Position numbers and translations under genes: made by a program
In this document: one piece after another, positions 8,901 to 55,494 of the stretch
Position numbering within the stretch: the first letter of the stretch is position 1
How the letters are laid out: each line of letters opens with the position of its first letter
The notes under the pieces: generated by a model
Database searches by the model: none
Seen by the model: only the letters and a program-made list of their open reading frames with translations
What the model was told of the DNA's origin: nothing
Source of the DNA: a virus
Taxonomy: Duplodnaviria; Caudoviricetes
Direction: 5' to 3' (one strand)
Length of the DNA: 55,975 nt
IMG/VR virus record: IMGVR_UViG_3300030012_003256
Coordinates: 1-55,975 of that record

Positions 8901-11900
8901 TTTCTTTGCCTCATAGCAAACTAACCTCATCCGGGCCAGTCCCTTTAAACTTAGATAATATCTATGGTAGTAACACAGATACAAATAAAAAATATGGACA
9001 ATCGTTATACAAAACAATTTCTATGTCTTTTGGACAGTTTAATATTTTACTGAAAGAGCCAAGTAATGCGGTATATGGTTTTAGACGAACCTATCCGAAT
9101 AATTCAAACTTTAGTTATTCTACAGTCGCTTACAAATTTTCTCCAAATATTTTATCTGATAATAAAAATGAATTTGATAAGACGGGAACGGGTAATGATA
9201 TTCACATGGACTTTGATATGAGGGGTTTTGGAAGTGCATATGGCTCATTATTTTCTGGTCTTGAAAGAATTAGAAGAAACCAAGACTCTAAATATCCCGA
9301 TGATTTTTCATCAAGCGTTTCAGCGACTGAATCTTTATTGTCCTCCATAAGCCAAAAAGTAAGTAATGCAGCAACATTATTTTTATATATCAATTCTGAT
9401 TTATTACCATATTCGTCATTAAGAAAAGATAGTCTGATGGACGGTAATAAAAATTTGATAAATTATAATTTATTTTTGGTAGAAAATAATAAGTTAAAGG
9501 ACAAAGTATTAGAATTTACGGAAACTTCTTCAGGTAATCAACTATTATTAACCGATAACTCATTTCAAACTATATCTATTACTGATAATACTGACATTTC
9601 TACTCTGAAAAGATTTGGACTGATGAGATTAACAGAAATTTGCTTTGATATTCATTTTAATTTATTTAATCCCGAAAAAGATACTGTTAAAAATAGAGAT
9701 TACTTTAGTGCAAGCCAAATTAATGGATATACCTTTTCTGCTGTTGGGACATTAAGTTCAACTTCTATCACAAATTCCTTAGCGGCCTCAAATACTACTT
9801 TGATTTTAGATACAGTAGAGTCTTCAAATCCACCAACAGGAACAGATATTCTTTACGATGCAAACTTTAAAAGAATTGGAACAGTCAGTAGTTATAATAG
9901 TGGAACTAAAACAATCACTTTAACAAGTGCCGCAATTTTAAATGATGATGCTACATTTACAGTAGGGACCGTTTTTCAACAAAGCAGATTAGACATTATT
10001 TTCTTAGAAGGAACTAAAGATGGAAATACTTTTATTTCTAAAGATAGAGCACATATACAAAAAGGTGCAATTATTACTGATAACTATTTATCTGATTCTG
10101 GTGATGTTTGGGAAGGCAATAATGATGGCGTATTAAATATGACAAATGAAGATATTATTTCTACACCGATACGATATAGATATTCTAACGCAGGTGGGAC
10201 TTTATCCGCTACCCCAAGAGCATTACCAACAAAGCCAATGGATGAGATATTTCCCGCGTCAAATGTTAGACAAATTTTTAAACATAGTATTGGAGTAATT
10301 CTAGACACTTATTTTATTGAACAGGGACAAAAGCACACAATTGAAAAAGGAGTAACTATTCCTTTTAATATCGGAAATCAAGTTGTTTTTGACGATGGAA
10401 CTACAAATAACTTCACAAACTTTATTACCTTAGGAAATACTTCGCCTAACTATCAATTTGGAGATAAATACCCAGATGGAACTTCTAACACCTTAACAGC
10501 GTCGGGTAGTCAACCTTACGAAGCAACAGGTGTTAAGTTTGGGATAAAACCTAGACTATACTATGATAGTGGAATTAGTGGATATTCTACAGCAACAATA
10601 TCTTCTTCCAATGGAGACTTATTTCAATATAATTTTGCAGTTTTTACTGGAAGTATTGGATGGATAGATTTCATAGACTTGACAGGTTGCTATTTGATTT
10701 CAGAAGCAGGATACGATACCGATTTACAGACGGCTGTAGATTCAGGAGATGAAAATACTAATTCATGTAGAAATATGAATGGAGTAATTCCTCAAGACAT
10801 AATTTATGTTGTTTCTCATACTGTTAGGAATGATAGTGATAGGCAACATCGCTTGGTTCTTGATAAAGAACTGACCCATCAAGAGGCATATCGCATACTT
10901 AAGCCAAATGAAACTACTTTTTATGATTTTATGCCAGAACAAATACATTTGAATATGCTTTCATCAAAGTATACAAAAATGCCAGAAGAAAACAAAGTAT
11001 ATGAAGTAAATCAAGATATTGAAATTGTAGAAGGAACAAAAGAAAAAACTTCAACAAAAGAAGGGCCAAGAAGAGAATCTTTCTTGTCTATGTTTGTGGC
11101 TGTTGACCCCGATAAACAAAGTAATAATGAGAATCATTTAATTGTAAAAAATGCAGAAAACTTTTTAGATATATTAGAAGAAGGAGAACATTCTCTTTTT
11201 GCCTCTGATGGAGAAAATAGTATGAAAATATCGGCTACCGTTAAGTCAGAATTTGATTTTACTGGAGAGCAAGATATTATTCTTACTTTATCTGATATGA
11301 AAACGATGAAAGGGGTCGTTAGTTTCTCTGAAACCTTTACCCTAAATACAACAGAAGAGTTAAAAATTGACCCAACGAGAGCATGTATTGGTTCTACTGT
11401 TAGCGTTGGTCTTGAAGGTGAAGACCTTATCAATGAATTACTTGAACAAGAGGGGATTGAATTTACAACCACTTCAACTGATACTCCAATGTATTTAGCA
11501 CCAAATTATCAAGGAGTAGATTTATTTTCAGCCATCCGATATATTCTTGATAGAAAGGGAATGAAACTTGTTGAAGAGAACAATGTGTTCAAGATTATTC
11601 CCGAAGATGAGGACTCTTTGAGAACAAACATTACAATTGATGATAGCGGTAATTTCCTGATTAGCGACTTTGAAAAAGTATCTACTCTTTTTGACTTCTT
11701 TAATGAAATTAATGTTTATGGAAACGCCCACAAAGCGATTCGCAAAGACCTTCGCTCAATACAAAAAAGAGGAAGAAAGACCTTAGAGGTTGTAGATAAT
11801 ACTCTACTGACTCAAGAAGAAGTAGATAAAAGAGCAACTAAACTTTTAAGAATACATTCTCGTCTTAATCAGAAACTATCTTTTACTATGCAAAATAAAG

Positions 11901-21259: not shown

Positions 21260-21437
21260 CTACAATAGTAATTAATTTAGAATGCCTTGATAAATAGGAA
21301 CCTATTGTAGTCGTGTTTTCTAAATATCTTAAGGTTTTCATTTTATCAACCATTCTATCTTTCATTTGTGCCGCAGAAAAACCGTCTGGCATATTTGGTA
21401 TTTCTTTATCAATTTTCTTACTTAAAAAACTATTCAT
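21213..21437 (-). CDS. small winged-helix-like protein (between polB halves)
   Basis: FSAAQM...TTTIGSYLSR..YWR, similar in pattern to 27154-27384. Confidence 0.45.
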   Translation of the reverse strand: MNSFLSKKIDKEIPNMPDGFSAAQMKDRMVDKMKTLRYLENTTTIGSYLSRHSKLITIVDDRNKRTYWRTEHEN

Positions 21438-23124
21438 CTATTTTCATCTCCTTTGCTTTAAATGCGGCAAGTCTAATTGCTTCTCTTGCACTTGCGGTAA
21501 TAGATGCGGCTAAATCAACATCAGCCCATCCAAATCCTTGAAAAGCAACAATGCCATAAAAAGAGGCCATTAATCGCTTTACTGCCATTTGATTGTTATA
21601 CCATTTAGCATACTCGCCGTTGTCCTCCTTTTGTGCTTGATACATAAGTCGCTTATATTCATTTCGCAACTCCTTCAATTCAAGAACGGCTCTCGGTAAA
21701 AGACCGAGTTTATCTGTTTTATAGTAAAGCATATCTTGATATTTAACTTCACTAAAATCTCTTGGTGTAAGAATATTTACAGCAAATTCTGTTGGTTGTT
21801 TTGATTTTGTTTCCCAACTAATATTGCGAGCAATCATCATTGAAGGATATAGACCAGCAAAATCAAAAGCGGCAACATTCAAATGTAATCCGTTTGTCTC
21901 TTCGCTTAACGGGTCATAAATCATCGCACCTTCATATTCTTTGCGTTCATCAACCTTTTTACCTGTTGGTGCTTTCCAAGTAGCATTTCGCATAAAATAA
22001 ATACTACCCATATGAGAAGCATAGAAACAAGCATCAAATGGTGCTTTCAATAACCTTTGAAGTGAAAGAATCGCTTCACTACAAAAATTAGTCTCATCAA
22101 TTTCAACCATCAGTTCAACATCTCTCACAGCATACTTAAGATAAGTTCCTGTATCTTCTAACCAACCTTTACGATAAAACTCGTTAGTATCTGGAAACTT
22201 CCAAGAAACCAATTTCTTTTTGTTAAGAACAGTCTCTCCGATATAATCAAGCGATAAAGAAGGTAATGTTCCTCTTTGGCTGTCATTCCATTGTCTTTCA
22301 AAAGCAAGGTCTAACGAGAGGGTTATGCGACCCCCTACGGGTTGCTCAATGGGAGAGAACCCACTTTCACCATAGGCGAAAGAGAAGCCGTCCTTGACCT
22401 TTTTAACGCCCTTAACGAAGCCAATTGGAGACATGATGCGAGGGTCAAGACCCACGGCACACACCCGTTCAAATAATTTCGGTAAATCAGCAAAATGACC
22501 AAACCAAGCAATTAACATATCTGGGTCTTTTACAATCATTGTAGTCATAAAAGATTCAAGCATTTCTTTTTCTGAAGGAAAAATATGCAAGTGCGTTTCG
22601 GTGTCGTTGGAAAGTGCTTCCCAATCAAAGGAATGCTTCGTGTGCATTTTATTAGGAAACCAGACCCATTGAATATACTTTTCATCGTAGTTATCATAAG
22701 AAACAATTGTTGTAATGCAATCGTGATATTCTCCGCCTTGTTGCCATTCCATATCCCAATACCACTTTCGCAGTTTATATTCAGGCATTTCATCTAATTC
22801 ATCAACACAATACCGAAAATGCAAAGGAACATCTGCCTCATAGGTTTCATTCCACATCTTCTTTGCATTACGAACATCATTTGCATTCTCAACAAAAACT
22901 TTTTTCAAAGACTTCCCTTCAAGATTAGTCCAGTTGCCACGAACATATTCAAAGTCTCTAGTAATATATTTACTTGGCGAATAACTAAAAAATTCTGTGG
23001 CTTCTTCATCCACAAAGAAGTATGGTCTAAAATTTACCATTTCATACTTTCTTTCACCGTTTTCTCTCCATGCTTTATATATTCTCATTCCATCATTCAT
23101 TTTATTAATAATCACTAATATCAC
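21430..23124 (-). CDS. polB: family B DNA polymerase, N-terminal part (exonuclease, motifs A and B)
   Basis: FRPYF, YEADV, WDME, YAVRD, DFAGLYPS, QMAVKRLMASFYG, ITASAR. Confidence 0.9.
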   Translation of the reverse strand: MILVIINKMNDGMRIYKAWRENGERKYEMVNFRPYFFVDEEATEFFSYSPSKYITRDFEYVRGNWTNLEGKSLKKVFVENANDVRNAKKMWNETYEADVPLHFRYCVDELDEMPEYKLRKWYWDMEWQQGGEYHDCITTIVSYDNYDEKYIQWVWFPNKMHTKHSFDWEALSNDTETHLHIFPSEKEMLESFMTTMIVKDPDMLIAWFGHFADLPKLFERVCAVGLDPRIMSPIGFVKGVKKVKDGFSFAYGESGFSPIEQPVGGRITLSLDLAFERQWNDSQRGTLPSLSLDYIGETVLNKKKLVSWKFPDTNEFYRKGWLEDTGTYLKYAVRDVELMVEIDETNFCSEAILSLQRLLKAPFDACFYASHMGSIYFMRNATWKAPTGKKVDERKEYEGAMIYDPLSEETNGLHLNVAAFDFAGLYPSMMIARNISWETKSKQPTEFAVNILTPRDFSEVKYQDMLYYKTDKLGLLPRAVLELKELRNEYKRLMYQAQKEDNGEYAKWYNNQMAVKRLMASFYGIVAFQGFGWADVDLAASITASAREAIRLAAFKAKEMKIDE

Positions 23125-46146: not shown

Positions 46147-46222
46147 TGGCGGGCGTATCAGGATTTGAACCCGAATCCCCGGCTTAGAAGGCCAGAATGC
46201 TATCCAATTACACCATACACCC
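46147..46222 (-). tRNA. tRNA-Arg(UCU), CCA encoded
   Basis: GGGTGTATGGTGTAATTGGATAGCATTCTGGCCT-TCT-AAGCCGGGGATTCGGGTTCAAATCCTGATACGCCCGCCA folds as a cloverleaf. Confidence 0.92.
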
Positions 46223-50346: not shown

Positions 50347-50433
50347 TGGTGCTGAGAGCAGGATTTGAACCTGCGAACCGTTAAGGACAGGAGTTTAAGC
50401 CCTGCGTGTTTAACCATGCTCCACCATCTCAGC
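50347..50433 (-). tRNA. tRNA-Leu(UAA), CCA encoded
   Basis: GCTGAGA...CAGGG-CT-TAA-AC-TCCTG, long variable arm, GTTCAAATC, TCTCAGC-A-CCA. Confidence 0.9.
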
Positions 50434-50582
50434 ATTTGAATTTGTATAATGAAATGAGAATATTTACATTAAATAGATGGAATAGTGCAACCATTCGGCG
50501 CACTTCAACAGGGGCAGGAGCGAGCCGTATAAGACCGGCGGCACCCCCCTCACTCTTTGTTGGCTGTTTGATTAAATCCTCA

Positions 50583-50843
50583 TCAATTAAACCTAATGAG
50601 GTAGATAAGCCACAAACAAAGACCTACAACAATTGACCCCCAAAAAAGTCTCAATCGTACATTGTTTGGAGGATTACATTTTTTCTTCAAGCAGTAATGA
50701 CTGGTTGAAATAACCCCATGATGCACATAGGATTCAAGAAGATGATTTGAACCTTCAGGAATATCAATACCGCAAGACTGGCAAATATAGTCTTGTTTTG
50801 CTTTGACATAAACTTCTTCAACAAGACGCATTAAATCACCCAA
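50583..50843 (-). CDS. Zn-finger plus C-terminal TM protein
   Basis: KAKQDYICQSCG..I; hydrophobic C-terminus. Confidence 0.5.
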   Translation of the reverse strand: MGDLMRLVEEVYVKAKQDYICQSCGIDIPEGSNHLLESYVHHGVISTSHYCLKKKCNPPNNVRLRLFWGSIVVGLCLWLIYLIRFN

Positions 50844-50910
50844 AGGAGGAAGAAGAGAGGAAAAGCCCGAAAGCCCCCAAGTTCATGCGCCTCTCTTCTT
50901 CCATTTGTGG

Positions 50911-50949
50911 AAAAGGGGGGAATAGGGAACCTTGGCTCCCTATTCCCCA
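50911..50949 (-). terminator. terminator after 50996-51463
   Basis: GGGGAATAGGGA...TCCCTATTCCCC hairpin plus T-run on the minus strand. Confidence 0.6.
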
Positions 50950-50995
50950 TTGTTCAGTTCAAGGAACTGGAAATGCAAACAATAAAGAATTAACT

Positions 50996-51463
50996 TTATT
51001 CTTCGGAGGAAAGGAGGGAATCAACGCTTCCGTCCCATTGTCCGTCTTTATACAACTTTCCGAGGTTGTTGCGGGTTCGCTTAACAACTGCGGAAGCGTA
51101 TTCATTTGCATCTTCAAAAGCACCGCCACCAGATTTGATGTGCTTCATGGTAATTGCACCGATGATTTCATCGTGGTTAAAGTAGCCAGTAGCGGCTTCT
51201 TCAACAACTCCACAAATTCGGTCAATTGATACACGAACTGCGGCTGGAACAGCAGATTTTTGACCCCTTCGGAAAGGTGTGCCATCTCTGCCCTTCAAAA
51301 GTGCTTTCAAAGCACCTTCGGCGGCGGTTCGCTCATCAGGGTTGTTAGACCCAATTTGCAGGTTCAATTCAACGACTTGACGCAATCCAGCATCAAGCGA
51401 GGTGTCGGCTTCAAGGTATTCATTGACCTCAATAACGAGGCTTTCCCATTGTGTGTCGTCCAT
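50996..51463 (-). CDS. unknown protein, paralog family member 1
   Basis: Shares L.LG...D.R, RRG..S, GG.F, YKDG.WDGS with 53552 and 54725. Confidence 0.7.
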   Translation of the reverse strand: MDDTQWESLVIEVNEYLEADTSLDAGLRQVVELNLQIGSNNPDERTAAEGALKALLKGRDGTPFRRGQKSAVPAAVRVSIDRICGVVEEAATGYFNHDEIIGAITMKHIKSGGGAFEDANEYASAVVKRTRNNLGKLYKDGQWDGSVDSLLSSEE

Positions 51464-51499
51464 ATTTTTTCAACTCCAAGCCATTTTGTTGGCTCTGAA

Positions 51500-51535
51500 C
51501 TTTCCTCTTGTCAATGGTATATAAGGGGCTTCATC
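51500..51535 (-). promoter_or_regulatory. archaeal-type promoter, twin of the Ubl promoter
   Basis: GATGAAGCCCCTTATATA..TTGA.AA.AGGAAAG. Confidence 0.7.
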
Positions 51536-51724
51536 TCCAAGGATGAGGTGTAATTTTTGCACCGCCGAAGGCAGAACCGAATCCGGCGAGGGCAGATTTG
51601 AATTTGCATAGCGGCATCTTTCAATCGTGTTTAAAATGAATCAAATGATTTCTTTTATCTTTACTTTGCCCTAATGTAATTAATTGTTCAAAATGAATAG
51701 CGATTGAAAGACATTAACGCTTCC

Positions 51725-52055
51725 ACGCCATGAGAACCTTTCTCATGTGTTTCGCAGTCCATGAGAATCGGGGTTATGCAACACAACCTTTTCAAAACTA
51801 AACGAAAACAGCATTTTGCCCCACCTTTTTCGCATTTCTCATTTTCGCATGGGGGGCCATGATATTCTCCCTCTCATAATAGGGCACTTGTGTAAAGACA
51901 CATAAGCCCCTAATTTTAGAGGGGCATATTTCAGACACAGTATGATAATAATGAGAATATGATAATATATGTAAAACATATATCTTCTGCTACACAACCC
52001 TTTCATATTTGAGGGGATAGTGTTTCTCATCCCATGAGAAGTTCATGCGAAACAG
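51725..52055. repeat. cluster of ATG(A/C)GAA / TTC(T/G)CAT iteron-like repeats (candidate origin)
   Basis: About 12 copies in both orientations in the noncoding gap at the strand switch. Confidence 0.5.
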
Positions 52056-52293
52056 TTCATACTTCTCTATAATACTAATATTCATATTCGTATTCTTATA
52101 CGAATTAATATAAGAACAATTGAATACTACCCAAATGACTCAATATCAAATTAAGGGGTAATAATTTATACAAAGTAATGCAGTTGAAGCATATGTAAAA
52201 CAACATAATGTCGCTTTTAATGATGTATTCAAACCATATGGTTTGAGACACTTTGTAGACTTAAACCCTATATTCTCTAAGAATGGCTTAATT

Positions 52294-52578
52294 ATGTGCA
52301 GAGAATGTGTAAAAGCCTTGACCACCATTAGCCCGTTGATGAAAGCCCACCTCAAAGAGAAGTTCAATGAGTCTATGAAAAACGATTTGAAGATTCTTGA
52401 TGCCAATGTTCCGTTTCTTCGTGCTTACGAAATGCACGCTGAAGCCCTTAAACACACCATTGATTCGGTCTTGATGGAAGAAATCGGTGATATGGTCGTT
52501 TCTCTCCTTACCGGCGATATGTCCGGCATGATGGAAATGTTGGGCGAATCCAGCGACTTTCAAAAGGAGTGGGCTTGA
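52294..52578 (+). CDS. hypothetical early protein (probably leaderless)
   Basis: ATG 28 nt after CCCTATATT; MCRECVK start. Confidence 0.6.
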   Translation: MCRECVKALTTISPLMKAHLKEKFNESMKNDLKILDANVPFLRAYEMHAEALKHTIDSVLMEEIGDMVVSLLTGDMSGMMEMLGESSDFQKEWA

Positions 52579-52737
52579 ATGAAGAAAGAAATGAAAGAAA
52601 TCGTGTTTGAAATCCTTAACTATGCTGTTGATGCCTTGAAGTATGAAAGCCGTGGTGATGAACATTACAAAATCTCTTTGAGTCTTCTCAAAAGTTCTTC
52701 ACAACAACTTTTCTATTCTTGGGAAGAGGAAGAATAG
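52579..52737 (+). CDS. 52-aa hypothetical protein
   Basis: Manual ORF with AGGAG SD. Confidence 0.55.
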   Translation: MKKEMKEIVFEILNYAVDALKYESRGDEHYKISLSLLKSSSQQLFYSWEEEE

Positions 52738-52819
52738 TGCCTTCGGGCCATTAAAACAAAGCATGACCATATGGTTGTATTGCTTTGCAATTAAAACCAT
52801 ATACTGCAAAAGCACCCCT

Positions 52820-53400
52820 CTTTTGCTTCGGGGGTCGCTCCCCCGAAGGGGATTGACCGAATACCCTTGTTGGTGGGGGTAAGGTGTGATTTTTCTTGTA
52901 GTGAGACACATAGCGAATATGACGGCCAAGCGGTATAGATTATTTGTTCCCTGTGAAAGCGATTAAGGCTCAAAAGGCGCATGGCTACTAACCATGTTCG
53001 TAAAATCAGCAGACTGGCTCTTAAGACACTAAGAGCACCAAAAAGTGAGAGCGACCCAATCGTTTCAGTCTTGGAGATACCCAATTCTTCATCCCATCCT
53101 TCACATTCCTATGGCTATTAGTGGCCATAAAACCATAGTGAAACAAAGCCGAAACACAGCGTAGTAAATCGTGAAAGCAACAAGTAGCCTTCTATTGGTA
53201 TACCAGTTTTAGGAATAAGGAACAAAGTAGCGTAGTTAAGCGGATATGTATGGAGTAGGCGGCGTTTTATTCTCACAGCCACCTGTTAGAGAGCAACTGA
53301 TGTAGGAAACAGCATTGGCAATTGTAAAGGCACAAACGGGCATATTAGTAAAAATATCAATCATAATGAGACTTTTCCCTGCCCCGTTTGTTGCCCCCTC
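52820..53400 (+). ncRNA. candidate large structured noncoding RNA (~570 nt)
   Basis: Cassette-type promoter and end motifs, no + strand ORF >=60 aa, many hairpins and long-range complementarity. Confidence 0.55.
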
Positions 53401-53551
53401 AAAATATATTGGGGTTAAACATTACATTTGCAAAGCATTAAACCATATGGTTGTAGACTTTGTATTACAACCCTATTATATTCAATAGGGAATCCATTGT
53501 TGCTTCAAGGGGCTAACTTGAGCAACACCAACCGAAAAGAGGTGAAAAAAC

Positions 53552-54091
53552 ATGAAGAAAAACAACTGGATAAGTAATGCAAACAAAGTGCGAGCATGGG
53601 CCGAAAATCAAGACCCAAGCGATAACTTGAGTGCCGTTATGCTTTCCCTTCAACTGGGAGACAATGCGGCCAATGATGACCTTCGTTCTACCTATTGGAC
53701 AGCAATTCGTTCAATTGGTTCAACTATGGATGGTTTTCCACAGGCCCGCCGTGGCAGGGAAAGCAATCTATCAGAAACGCAGGAACTTGTTTTGGCGACT
53801 GTGGAGGAAAGCGTGGCATATGCCTTTGCTCAAATCCCTACTGAATACCACGAACTACTCCTTACGGTAATTGTTCCACACGGGCGAACTGGTGGCGTTT
53901 ATGGCTCCTTTGACGAATTGTGCGCTTCTTTCAAGAAGCAAGCACATAACTACATCATTCAATCAATGAAGGATGGTCGTGTGGCTATGACCAAAGACGG
54001 CGAATTTGACATGAAGGGCGACCTTCTTCAAATCACGCCCCGAACCAAGCCTATCAAGGCTGAATCTGACGGAGGTTCGGCAGAAGAGTGA
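53552..54091 (+). CDS. unknown protein, paralog family member 2
   Basis: GAGGTG SD; DDLRSTYWTAIRSIGS..FP.ARRGRES..PHGRTGG. Confidence 0.8.
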   Translation: MKKNNWISNANKVRAWAENQDPSDNLSAVMLSLQLGDNAANDDLRSTYWTAIRSIGSTMDGFPQARRGRESNLSETQELVLATVEESVAYAFAQIPTEYHELLLTVIVPHGRTGGVYGSFDELCASFKKQAHNYIIQSMKDGRVAMTKDGEFDMKGDLLQITPRTKPIKAESDGGSAEE

Positions 54092-54230
54092 TTGCAACAG
54101 GTTAGCCCCTTGTTGCCCCCTTTAGCCTTCGGGCTATTGGGGTTCGCCATTACATTAACAAAGTCTCAAACCATATGGTAAGAGAAACTTTGTGGCTACG
54201 CACCCTATATTGTATTAGTTAGGCTTTATC

Positions 54231-54461
54231 ATGTTTACCCGACAGCATTACGAAAGAATAGCCGAAAACCTTGCAGATAACCGAGAGGTTCACCCTAAGA
54301 CCATTGAAATTATGATTTGGTCATTCAAGTGCGATAATCCACGCTTTGACGAGAACCGCTTTCTTGAATACTTCTACGCCGAATATGTCGAAAGCCACGG
54401 TTTCCAGTACCCTTGGGTATTGGAAGAGGATAACCCAAAATTGACCATTCCTCATGTATGA
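54231..54461 (+). CDS. hypothetical protein (leaderless)
   Basis: TRQHYE.IA...F..DNPRFD..RF motif seen in small phage proteins; same promoter spacing as 52294. Confidence 0.7.
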   Translation: MFTRQHYERIAENLADNREVHPKTIEIMIWSFKCDNPRFDENRFLEYFYAEYVESHGFQYPWVLEEDNPKLTIPHV

Positions 54462-54724
54462 GGTAAAACCGCCCGACAATTGGCGACCCTCGGCCAATTA
54501 GCCCGACCCGAACAAACAGGGAAGGCAGGGATTAAAGACCACCCACGGAGAAAAGGGTTAATTCTCCGTGGGTGGCATCGGGCCGTTTCACTTAATTAAC
54601 AAAGCATATTACCATATGGTTGTAATGGCTTTGCCTGCACTTTAATTACAACCTTATACTGAATAGTGGGGTCTTGGTTGCTTCGGGGAGTTATGAAGCA
54701 TCAAACCCACTTGGAGGAATTGAT

Positions 54725-55231
54725 ATGAATACGAAAAATTGGACGAAAAACACGAATGCCGTTCTTGCGTGGCTTGGGCGTGAAGAACGAGGTGATAACG
54801 GTAAGGCCATTGAATTGAGCATTATGCTTGGAAATGGTGCAGAGAACGACGATATGCGTTCTACTTACTGGACGGCTATCCGAAGTATTGGGAGCGTTTA
54901 TGACGATTTCCCAGTCGCTCGCCGTGGTCGGGAGTCTTCACTTCCCGACTATGTGGAGCAAAATGCGCTTTCTGTGAAGAATGCGGTTCAAAATGCCTTT
55001 GCCACCATTGGTAGTGCTGACTTGATTTTGCAGGTCATTCTGCCTCATGGACGAACTGGCGGTGCTTTTGCAGATATTGAAGCATTGGCGGAGAACTACG
55101 CTGAAAAGGCGTACAAGGCTCTTTTGACCGGCTACAAAGATGGTCGTTGGGATGGCTCGCTTGATGGCGAAATGCCCAACATGACCCCACCTGCCGTGAA
55201 AACGGCTGAAGGAGGTCAAGAAGAGGAATGA
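54725..55231 (+). CDS. unknown protein, paralog family member 3
   Basis: GGAGG SD before ATG 54725; DDMRSTYWTAIRSIGS..FP.ARRGRES..PHGRTGG. Confidence 0.8.
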   Translation: MNTKNWTKNTNAVLAWLGREERGDNGKAIELSIMLGNGAENDDMRSTYWTAIRSIGSVYDDFPVARRGRESSLPDYVEQNALSVKNAVQNAFATIGSADLILQVILPHGRTGGAFADIEALAENYAEKAYKALLTGYKDGRWDGSLDGEMPNMTPPAVKTAEGGQEEE

Positions 55232-55288
55232 TGCGGATTAACTCCCCGTTGCCCCTTTTTGGGGTTTCCGTAAACTGGCAAAGCCAAA

Positions 55289-55494
55289 CCATATGGTTGT
55301 AAAGTTGTTAATAACTACTATATAGGTTTGTATAACTGGTGTAGTTATTCATCATAGATGGCTGTAAACAATGTTTAAACAGTTGCGTAATGCGTTCTAT
55401 AGAAAAGCGTTAGTGTATATTTAACGAAATAAACAAAAAGAAATGGTAGTTATTAACAACTTTTCGCGCTTCATAAGAACATACAACCATATGG
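55289..55494. repeat. nested inverted repeats
   Basis: Perfect 18-bp IR at 55301-55318 / 55446-55463, inside inverted CCATATGGTTGTA copies. Confidence 0.75.

Follow-up and report, generated by a model that had tools for sequence, protein, structure and literature searches.

Large structured RNAs can build higher-order assemblies: GOLLD and ROOL form multi-copy particles, and the dimerisation initiation site (DIS) of HIV-1 is a palindromic kissing-loop dimerisation site. A third RNA, manA, has been known as a motif since 2010 (PMC2864571) and has stayed an orphan, filed as a cis-regulatory riboswitch candidate. According to a bioRxiv preprint ('Structural assemblies for an RNA world', 10.64898/2026.07.01.735769), pentamers of manA RNA build up into decamers and a 60-subunit cage, with an intermolecular L5-L7' kissing loop as one interface in both pentamer types described; closed RNA-only oligomers are reported there for five manA constructs in vitro. 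Here we analyse positions 52820-53400 of a viral record from IMG/VR (55,975 nucleotides (nt), all of which we call the window; completeness estimate 59%), where a clear relative of manA appears as a gene of its own. Judged from sequence, 52825-53098 (module A) is an expanded relative of manA RNA (RF01745), and we hold the identification as a manA-type structured RNA gene with high confidence. The account we favour, and consider reasonably probable, is that this magrovirus locus encodes a modular structured RNA in a gene of its own, with self-assembly as the proposed function; the self-assembly mechanism taken by itself, which is argued by analogy, is a tentative proposal. An earlier note on this DNA had predicted a structured non-coding RNA of ~570 nt in its own expression cassette, possibly a new class with two crossing long-range helices. 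Homolog conservation, strong covariation and presence in RNA libraries bear out the structured RNA in its own cassette. A new class as a whole is not supported: the 5' 274 nt are a manA relative, the unit is modular and the crossing helices fail.

The 5' module as an expanded manA-type RNA

Homologs were reached through an alignment of the family of the 179-amino-acid (aa) protein encoded downstream, which led to 28 viral loci. A BLAST search of the element against 26 of these records matched 19, at 69-89% identity. The nearest relative, G001, is a complete 96,765-nt contig in which the element is 84% and the adjacent protein 97% identical. An exact 18-nt core searched in IMG/VR found a single close relative, and BLAST of 52740-53480 against 50,697 deposited phage records gave no match.

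The comparison with Rfam by Infernal that the earlier note proposed gave manA as the only family below E = 1 in 52600-53600, with none at gathering score; a scan of the whole contig returned no gathering-score match except two tRNAs. Among the 19 homolog loci, 10 match RF01745 in cmscan at 41.9-54.6 bits (E 2e-7 to 3e-11), and these alignments are full-length, with 255-276 nt spanning model positions 1-192. Among the ten is G012 (47.4 bits), whose identity to the element described here is 89%. The one further match (20.5 bits), in G001, is weak and local. The three loci without module A have no manA match.

The manA layout is strongly supported by compensatory change, the kind of evidence the earlier note had asked for. 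A 64-pair manA-based structure, drawn by hand on a MAFFT alignment of 17 viral sequences and leaving out P1, which MAFFT gaps shift, is 90.9% paired, compared with 68.0% in shuffles and 39-44% with partners slid; 47 of the 64 pairs have changed on both sides, and covariation is 0.545 against 0.183, with 0/500 shuffles as high. P4 is 100% paired, with all seven pairs changed on both sides, as is the base of P7 (3/3); P9 (95.3%, 3/5), P8 (89.2%, 5/6) and P5 (88.2%, 2/3) follow. The closing helix is 92.7% paired, one of its pairs being UA in 12 sequences and AU in two, and the outer pair of the short helix closed by UAAGGU is AU 10, CG 2 and GC 2. The MAFFT gaps are inconsistent in P1, P3 and the short ACC/GGU helix, and most unpaired cells come from the near-identical rows G007-G009, which are misaligned in the 5' third and are counted as unpaired in several helices. 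P1 was judged by eye: between groups its sequence is wholly different and the hairpin is retained (CUUCGGGGG/CCCCCGAAG, CUCCAGUC/GACUGGAG, UGUCGG/CCGACA, GUUGG/CCAAC). As in manA, P1 is followed directly by the GGGA strand of the closing helix, which pairs with UCCC near the 3' end, and the letters of UGAC-GAAUA, P3 and UAAGGU match the manA consensus in this contig, G012, G005 and G009. An RNAalifold fold of module A, which missed P1 and P8 and placed a helix at columns 53-60/231-237 that clashed with the manA layout, was replaced by the hand-drawn structure.

Two manA characters are absent. The GNRA tetraloop of P6 (consensus cugccc-gaaa-gggcag) is replaced by a 49-nt arm with covarying helices and a non-GNRA apical loop, which appears as insertions of 38-40 nt in the RF01745 alignments. 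The 5' untranslated region (UTR) position (Rfam type Cis-reg) gives way to the element's own promoter-like cassette and a shared 3' hairpin. Folded alone, 52825-53098 is more stable than most shuffles (z -2.37, 4/200 as good) and recovers most manA helices, whereas the whole 581 nt folds no better than shuffles on either strand (z -1.09 on plus, -1.56 on minus).

The element is also present in RNA libraries. We compared marine metatranscriptome assemblies with 52400-53900, using four runs from two samples of one study, and found contigs identical to the element over 52825-53098; the earlier note had suggested such a look at metatranscriptomes. Among contigs without differences from the element, two records have their first base at 52825 and three have their last at 53095 or 53098; the span so covered opens one base ahead of P1 and stops where the closing helix ends. 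This agreement between contig ends and manA domain hints weakly at a separate RNA species of ~272 nt. Contigs of a relative's version occur too, their loose ends matching G015/G013-type sequence. No contig covers 52400-52807 or 53114-53521, although missing cover in assemblies is not evidence of no transcript, and the next gene is covered at 53533-53784 only, with low word depth. Word depth over module A runs to hundreds in X1 and X2, values that cannot rank genes.

Loop complementarity, module B and proposed self-assembly

By our mapping, L5 of manA corresponds to the hairpin loop of P5, and L7 to the loop at the apex of the P7 arm. Their five pairs are 97.2% paired, compared with 88.2% in shuffles and 15-51% when slid (14 sequences with both loops), and the central pair is AU in eight, GC in three and UA in three. 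The stem presenting the second loop (P7 tip, 52980-52984/52992-52996) is 100% paired, with 5/5 pairs changed on both sides. The magrovirus RNA thus appears to keep, by compensatory change, the complementarity that builds manA particles. A by-eye search for further loop-loop complements (L8-L9, L3-L8) found none that covary.

Module A is commonly followed by a second conserved domain, module B, for which none of the 19 loci gave an Rfam match at E <= 1. Its 14 pairs are 95.0% paired against 86.3% in shuffles, with covariation of 0.230 against 0.115 and 0/500 shuffles as high; in the stem 53109-53114/53133-53138, three pairs have changed on both sides. The tip of its variable arm is palindromic in 13/13 regions scanned, and its sequence differs between viruses: as RNA, the tips read GGUAUACC, GGCGCGCC, GGCAUGCC, GCCAUGGC, GGCUAGCC, CCAUGG, CCUAGG and ACUAGU (in DNA letters GGTATACC, GGCGCGCC, GGCATGCC, GCCATGGC, GGCTAGCC, CCATGG, CCTAGG and ACTAGT). 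The 6-nt tips cannot close a hairpin of their own, and in the 8-nt tips the central four bases are palindromic every time. We infer that this is the pattern expected if self-pairing between copies were selected; alternatively, the longer palindromes could fold back into a short stem with four loop nucleotides. A search with a degenerate module B motif found it in 21 IMG/VR contigs (33-185 kb), with one copy in each. Module B behaves as a 3'-terminal module, because a T run (5-7 or more T) follows immediately in five contigs (L060, L064, L066, L075, L077) and because it stands after an open reading frame (ORF) in G018 and G021. As a conserved RNA domain without an Rfam family, it adds to the small catalogue of archaeal-virus RNAs.

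Two hairpins lie 3' of module B. The hairpin at 53278-53319 shows two pairs changed on both sides relative to G001 (CUGUU/AACAG vs CGCUU/AAGCG), the other homologs being without this stretch. The terminal hairpin, compared by eye, differs between lineages by compensatory changes: it reads ACGGGCA/UGCCCGU here, ACGGACA/UGUCCGU in G016, G015, G013 and G011, and ACACACA/UGUGUGU in G014. A hammerhead-like CUGAUGU..GAAAC at 53297-53310 was dropped, as no ribozyme family matched at E <= 10. In L060, a related viral contig, the threonine operon leader family scores 38.6 bits (E 7e-4) at 9576-9675 on the minus strand; this falls short of the gathering score of 55 and is probably due to chance.

The mechanism we propose would begin with transcription from near 52825, ~24 nt past an archaeal TATA-like box (AAAACCATATA), and end with termination at the shared GCCCC/GGGG hairpin. 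The manA-type domain would then join copies of itself through the L5-L7 loops, like the manA RNAs studied by cryo-EM, giving a closed multi-copy RNA particle instead of cis regulation of a gene, and the palindromic loops of module B may add further self-association. A more specific form of the proposal, which we regard as somewhat unlikely in all its details, is that the ~274-nt manA-type domain accumulates alone and forms RNA-only particles based on L5-L7' pentamers in infected marine group II archaea, with module B as a hitherto undescribed self-pairing domain (invariant UGGCCA plus a lineage-specific palindromic tip) that could be attached to a manA domain or to the 3' end of an mRNA and bring copies together. 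If the proposal is true, RNA particles of this kind would be known for the first time from the archaeal virosphere, which would hint that manA RNAs exist as autonomous particles and not as riboswitches. Together, the stand-alone layout, the L5-L7 covariation and the presence in RNA libraries provide a natural and abundant example on which self-assembly can be tested.

Several observations weigh against this account, some touching the identity of the RNA and others its assembly. The element of this contig scores 19.7 bits on RF01745 against a gathering score of 55.2 (E 0.004-0.013, cmscan), in an alignment that is local and partly wrong, and no homolog reaches the gathering score. Five loci (G016, G015, G013, G011, G014) align with module A yet have no manA match at E <= 1, and L066, with a clear module A (79% column identity), has none at E <= 0.01. 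The structure was drawn from the Rfam alignments and then counted on the same sequences, and relatedness among the 17 sequences makes the shuffle control overstate significance; the slid controls retain this relatedness and are far lower. The RNA-library contigs cannot show the strand, ends or level of the RNA. The L5/L7 numbering is our own mapping, a count of hairpins in the Rfam consensus that fits L6 as the GNRA loop. The cage preprint (10.64898/2026.07.01.735769) is unreviewed, and its results as described are in vitro and concern bacterial or phage manA RNAs of <200 nt. The part from 53099 to 53415 (module B and the 3' part) is no more stable than shuffles (z +0.51), and covariation cannot separate an intramolecular from an intermolecular kissing contact. 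As to the low scores, the Rfam manA model is at its sensitivity limit for these viral RNAs, because the loci with an alignable module A named above (the five and L066) get no match. Among five further module-B loci, which include L066, cmscan gave no manA match at E <= 0.01.

A monomeric RNA acting in trans is the first alternative: it might, for example, serve a host or viral protein or RNA as decoy, sponge or guide, L5 and L7 would kiss within one molecule, and no multi-copy particle would form in vivo. Such an RNA would likewise be a stand-alone unit present in RNA libraries, an intramolecular contact accounts for the covarying loop pair just as well, and the survey of Weinberg et al. marked a 'pseudoknot?' in its manA drawing (PMC2864571). 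The preprint, in the assemblies it presents, places L5-L7' between protomers in both manA assemblies (10.64898/2026.07.01.735769), and the module B loops stay palindromic as their sequence changes, which fits self-pairing and not a protein site. We consider the monomer unlikely.

Cassette, modular layout and the other alternatives

The RNA stands in an array of short units that share sequence elements. The palindrome core CCATATGG has seven copies, all in 52234-55494, against 0.61 expected, and 0/100 shuffles reach seven. The palindrome at the head of the RNA's own unit is presumed to be an operator or upstream promoter element. Within the A/T-rich box, AACC[A/T]TA is invariant in 9/9 homologs of the alignment, with constant spacing to the first hairpin, and the box is a candidate archaeal B-recognition element (BRE)/TATA element with a probable promoter role; a sigma-70 scan found sites no commoner than in shuffles (10 vs 10.1). 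The earlier note had described a promoter common to the neighbouring genes, and this holds for CCATATGG; the exact AACC.TATACTG box recurs in only one neighbour (52795 and 54650), the remaining cassettes having variants of it. A looser box, AACCNTATWNNG, has three matches against 0.96 expected, a number that 10/100 shuffles reach. The shared leader and 3' motif that it described are both found more often than expected: TTGCTTCRRGGG (<=1 mismatch) has four copies against 0.80 (1/100 shuffles reach four), and GTTGCCCC has six against 0.63 (0/100 shuffles as many). Four of the six GTTGCCCC copies are on the plus strand in the cassette region, those at 54112 and 55248 directly 3' of two neighbouring protein genes, and at 53390, 54112 and 55248 each is followed by a loop and GGGGTT. 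The hairpin so formed behind the RNA is a putative terminator.

The arrangement bears on the role first proposed for manA, which here would be that of a cis-regulatory leader, or riboswitch, of the 179-aa gene downstream. Known manA RNAs lie mostly in potential 5' UTRs and are listed as riboswitch candidates in the 2010 survey (PMC2864571), and here and in G003-G005 a member of the 179-aa gene family follows the RNA directly. Between them, however, stand the terminator-like hairpin 53393-53416 and a second promoter cassette, with a copy of CCATATGG at 53443 that belongs to the downstream gene; module A and the start codon are ~450 nt apart, with other conserved RNA between them; and in G012, G016 and G013 the RNA and the homolog of the gene are 1.6-2 kb apart. 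The leader role is disfavoured because of the stand-alone layout and the conserved, covarying L5-L7 complementarity, and we rate it as quite improbable.

The layout of the homologs shows that the element is modular, not a single 570-nt pseudoknotted fold. Most commonly a 5' module A is followed by module B. In G003, G004 and G005, module A is joined straight to the 3' hairpin region without B, and in G012 modules A and B are followed by the next promoter, without the 3' part. Module B stands without A right after the stop codon of an 84-aa ORF in G018, G025 and G021, and we claim this arrangement only for these three, where the ORF ends at module B. Coordinates for this arrangement are 1246-1500 in L052 and 1247-1501 in L054.

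A single RNA of ~570 nt and of a new class would be held by the helices 52832-40/53049-57 and 52943-50/53219-26, which the earlier note had read as crossing. Both are perfect here, and no Rfam family reaches gathering score in the element. The first is above shuffles, with 69.3% paired vs 60.4% (17 sequences) and covariation of 0.313 vs 0.203 (0/500 shuffles as high), but it is lost in G011, G010 and G022, and its strands are also needed for the top of P1 and for a local hairpin, 53050-53054/53060-53064, that is 87.1% paired with 4/5 pairs changed on both sides; we take it for a coincidence specific to a lineage, at most for an alternative contact. The second is at shuffle level (67.6% paired vs 67.1%, covariation 0.035 vs 0.044), its 5' strand lies inside a local helix with 7/7 pairs changed on both sides, and it would link modules A and B, which occur apart; we reject it. 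By our own arithmetic, ~2.6 complementary 8-mers, (580^2/2)/4^8, and 0.6 9-mers are expected by chance in 580 nt. With module A of manA type and each module occurring alone, a single new fold is very improbable. The six short hairpins listed with it fared better: all are present in the sequence and four coincide with supported helices, namely TACCC/GGGTA (P3), CATGG/CCATG (P7 tip), GCTCTTA/TAAGAGC (first P8 hairpin) and CAAACGGG/CCCGTTTG (terminal hairpin). The other two are in conflict, TCCCC/GGGGA with P1 and the closing helix, and TATGGC/GCCATA with a covarying alternative in module B.

The prediction that 52820-53400 lacks a plus-strand ORF >=60 aa holds, the overlapping plus-strand ORFs being 39, 46, 39 and 57 aa with stops in all three frames. 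Minus-strand coding, which the earlier note named as grounds for abandoning the RNA, was checked: the ORF at 52791-53084 (97 aa) has no Pfam or PHROG match, as is also true of the neighbouring small proteins, and coding on either strand is ruled out by four indels of 1 nt each within the element in the alignment with G001. The last alternative is that the stretch is no RNA gene at all and is either a protein gene in decay or an element acting as DNA, for instance through palindromes that bind protein. It would draw on that minus-strand ORF and on the many DNA palindromes of the region, and is hardly credible given an ORF without family match and with 1-nt indels, compensatory changes in 47/64 pairs, a stretch present in RNA libraries, and palindromes that differ between viruses, unlike the site of one protein.

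Features of the RNA locus and tRNA genes in the window, with coordinates
Feature	Position	Strand	Basis or remark
Palindrome ACCATATGGT at cassette head	52766..52775	+	CCATATGG array; kept upstream of the RNA in G001
A/T-rich box AAAACCATATACTG	52793..52806	+	~24 nt before first base under RNA-library contigs
Module A, expanded manA-type domain	52825..53098 (274 nt)	+	RF01745 alignments of homologs, pair counts, minimum free energy, RNA libraries
P1	52826-52848
Closing helix GGGAU/AUCCC	52849-52853 with 53091-53095
Junction UGAC-GAAUA, then P3 hairpin, then UAAGGU
P4	52887-52893 with 53002-53008
P5	52894-52906
P5 hairpin loop UGUAGUG, mapped to manA L5	52897..52903	+	52899-52903 complementary to 52986-52990
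Enlarged P6 arm, 49 nt, in place of GNRA-capped hairpin	52907-52955
P7, enlarged	52960-53000
Apical loop of P7 arm CUACUAA, mapped to manA L7	52985..52991	+	L5 partner
P8 with two inner hairpins	53011-53071
P9	53073-53090
Module B	53105..53272	+	17-sequence alignment, pair counts
Module B stem	53109-53114 with 53133-53138		Around invariant UGGCCA at 53122-53127
Module B helix GAAAC with GUUUU	53140-53144 with 53264-53268		GAAAC/GUUUY among homologs
Module B helix GCC with GGC	53148-53150 with 53258-53260		GGC/GCC in one lineage
Module B variable arm tipped by palindrome UGGUAUACCA	53196-53205
Hairpin GCCA/UGGC + CUGUU/AACAG around 20-nt loop	53278..53319	+	Only in this contig and G001
Terminal hairpin CAAACGGGCA / UGCCC(C)GUUUG	53333..53390	+	Conserved UUCCCUG on 3' side
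GCCCCC-loop-GGGG hairpin, then UU	53393..53416	+	3' end motif common to neighbouring protein cassettes
tRNA-Arg(TCT)	46147-46222	-
tRNA-Leu(TAA)	50347-50433	-

Virus, neighbourhood and comparison with known systems

The contig encodes a family B DNA polymerase (PolB), an ATP-dependent DNA ligase, a Cpn60/TCP-1 chaperonin, a ribonucleotide reductase, a tail tube protein and a UvrD-like helicase. A similar gene set is described for group B magroviruses, presumed viruses of marine group II archaea, and the traits given for magroviruses include a pair of tRNA-Leu and tRNA-Arg, ribonucleotide reductase in group B, chaperonins and ATP-dependent ligases (PMC5434244). Among cultured viruses, PolB is matched best by haloarchaeal tailed viruses, at ~24% identity. 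From its gene content the contig is probably a group-B-like magrovirus, a tailed virus of marine group II archaea; we take the host to be archaeal because the gene content fits group B magroviruses and PolB is nearest to that of haloarchaeal tailed viruses. The PolB ORF (21430-23124, minus strand) has only 564 aa, with a Pfam match to profile positions 37-193 of 453, and may be part of a split polymerase as described for magrovirus group B1 (PMC5434244).

Around the RNA, 52234-55494 is an array of at least seven small cassettes, each headed by the palindrome (A)CCATATGG(T) with an A(A/C)CC-N-TAT box 20-30 nt downstream, and several end with a GTTGCCCC-loop-GGGGTT hairpin; the array looks like a single regulator site serving swappable genes. 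The proteins encoded at 53552-54091 (179 aa) and 54674-55231 (185 aa) are paralogs (45% identical) without a Pfam or PHROG match, and the 179-aa family has 238 marine metagenome relatives and an invariant PHGRTGG motif. The 5' leader of the 179-aa gene (53499-53526) opens with TTGCTTC like the RNA and holds a possible hairpin, GTTGCTTCAAG / CTTGAGCAAC. A further region of ~1.8 kb, 50440-52230, has short or overlapping ORFs only and a G+C content of 0.41-0.43 against ~0.35 elsewhere; it has no Rfam match at gathering score, and no search was aimed at further RNA genes there.

What is new here is an expanded, sub-threshold manA variant that is a stand-alone gene in presumed viruses of archaea and is fused to a second domain not on file. 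Full-text literature searches, which left the Weinberg 2010 supplements (metagenomic members) outside their scope, found nothing linking manA or a non-coding RNA with magroviruses, and manA is not known to have been reported from hosts of the archaeal domain.

Like the HIV-1 DIS, module B has a tip that differs between viruses and is always self-complementary, and it adds an invariant UGGCCA loop; unlike the DIS, it is a predicted dimerisation site, and its longer palindromes could form a short stem with four loop nucleotides. With GOLLD and ROOL the magrovirus RNA shares the character of a large structured viral RNA without a coding role, expressed as a separate gene, whereas it matches no Rfam family but manA at E <= 1 and has the manA architecture. 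The closest system is manA (RF01745) itself, with which it shares the order of helices (P1, the GGGA/UCCC closing helix, UGAC-GAAUA, P3 with UAAGGU, P4, P5 with a GU-rich loop, P7, P8 and P9), the CCCAYCCUU tail, complementary L5 and L7, and marine and viral carriers. It differs from manA in scoring below gathering (19.7 bits here, 41.9-54.6 in relatives), in its length (274 nt against a 192-position model), and in its 49-nt arm for the GNRA-capped P6, enlarged P7 and two-hairpin P8. Unlike manA, moreover, it is carried by a presumed virus of archaea and not by a cyanophage or gamma-proteobacterium, has its own putative promoter and terminator in place of a 5' UTR position, and is fused to further RNA modules.

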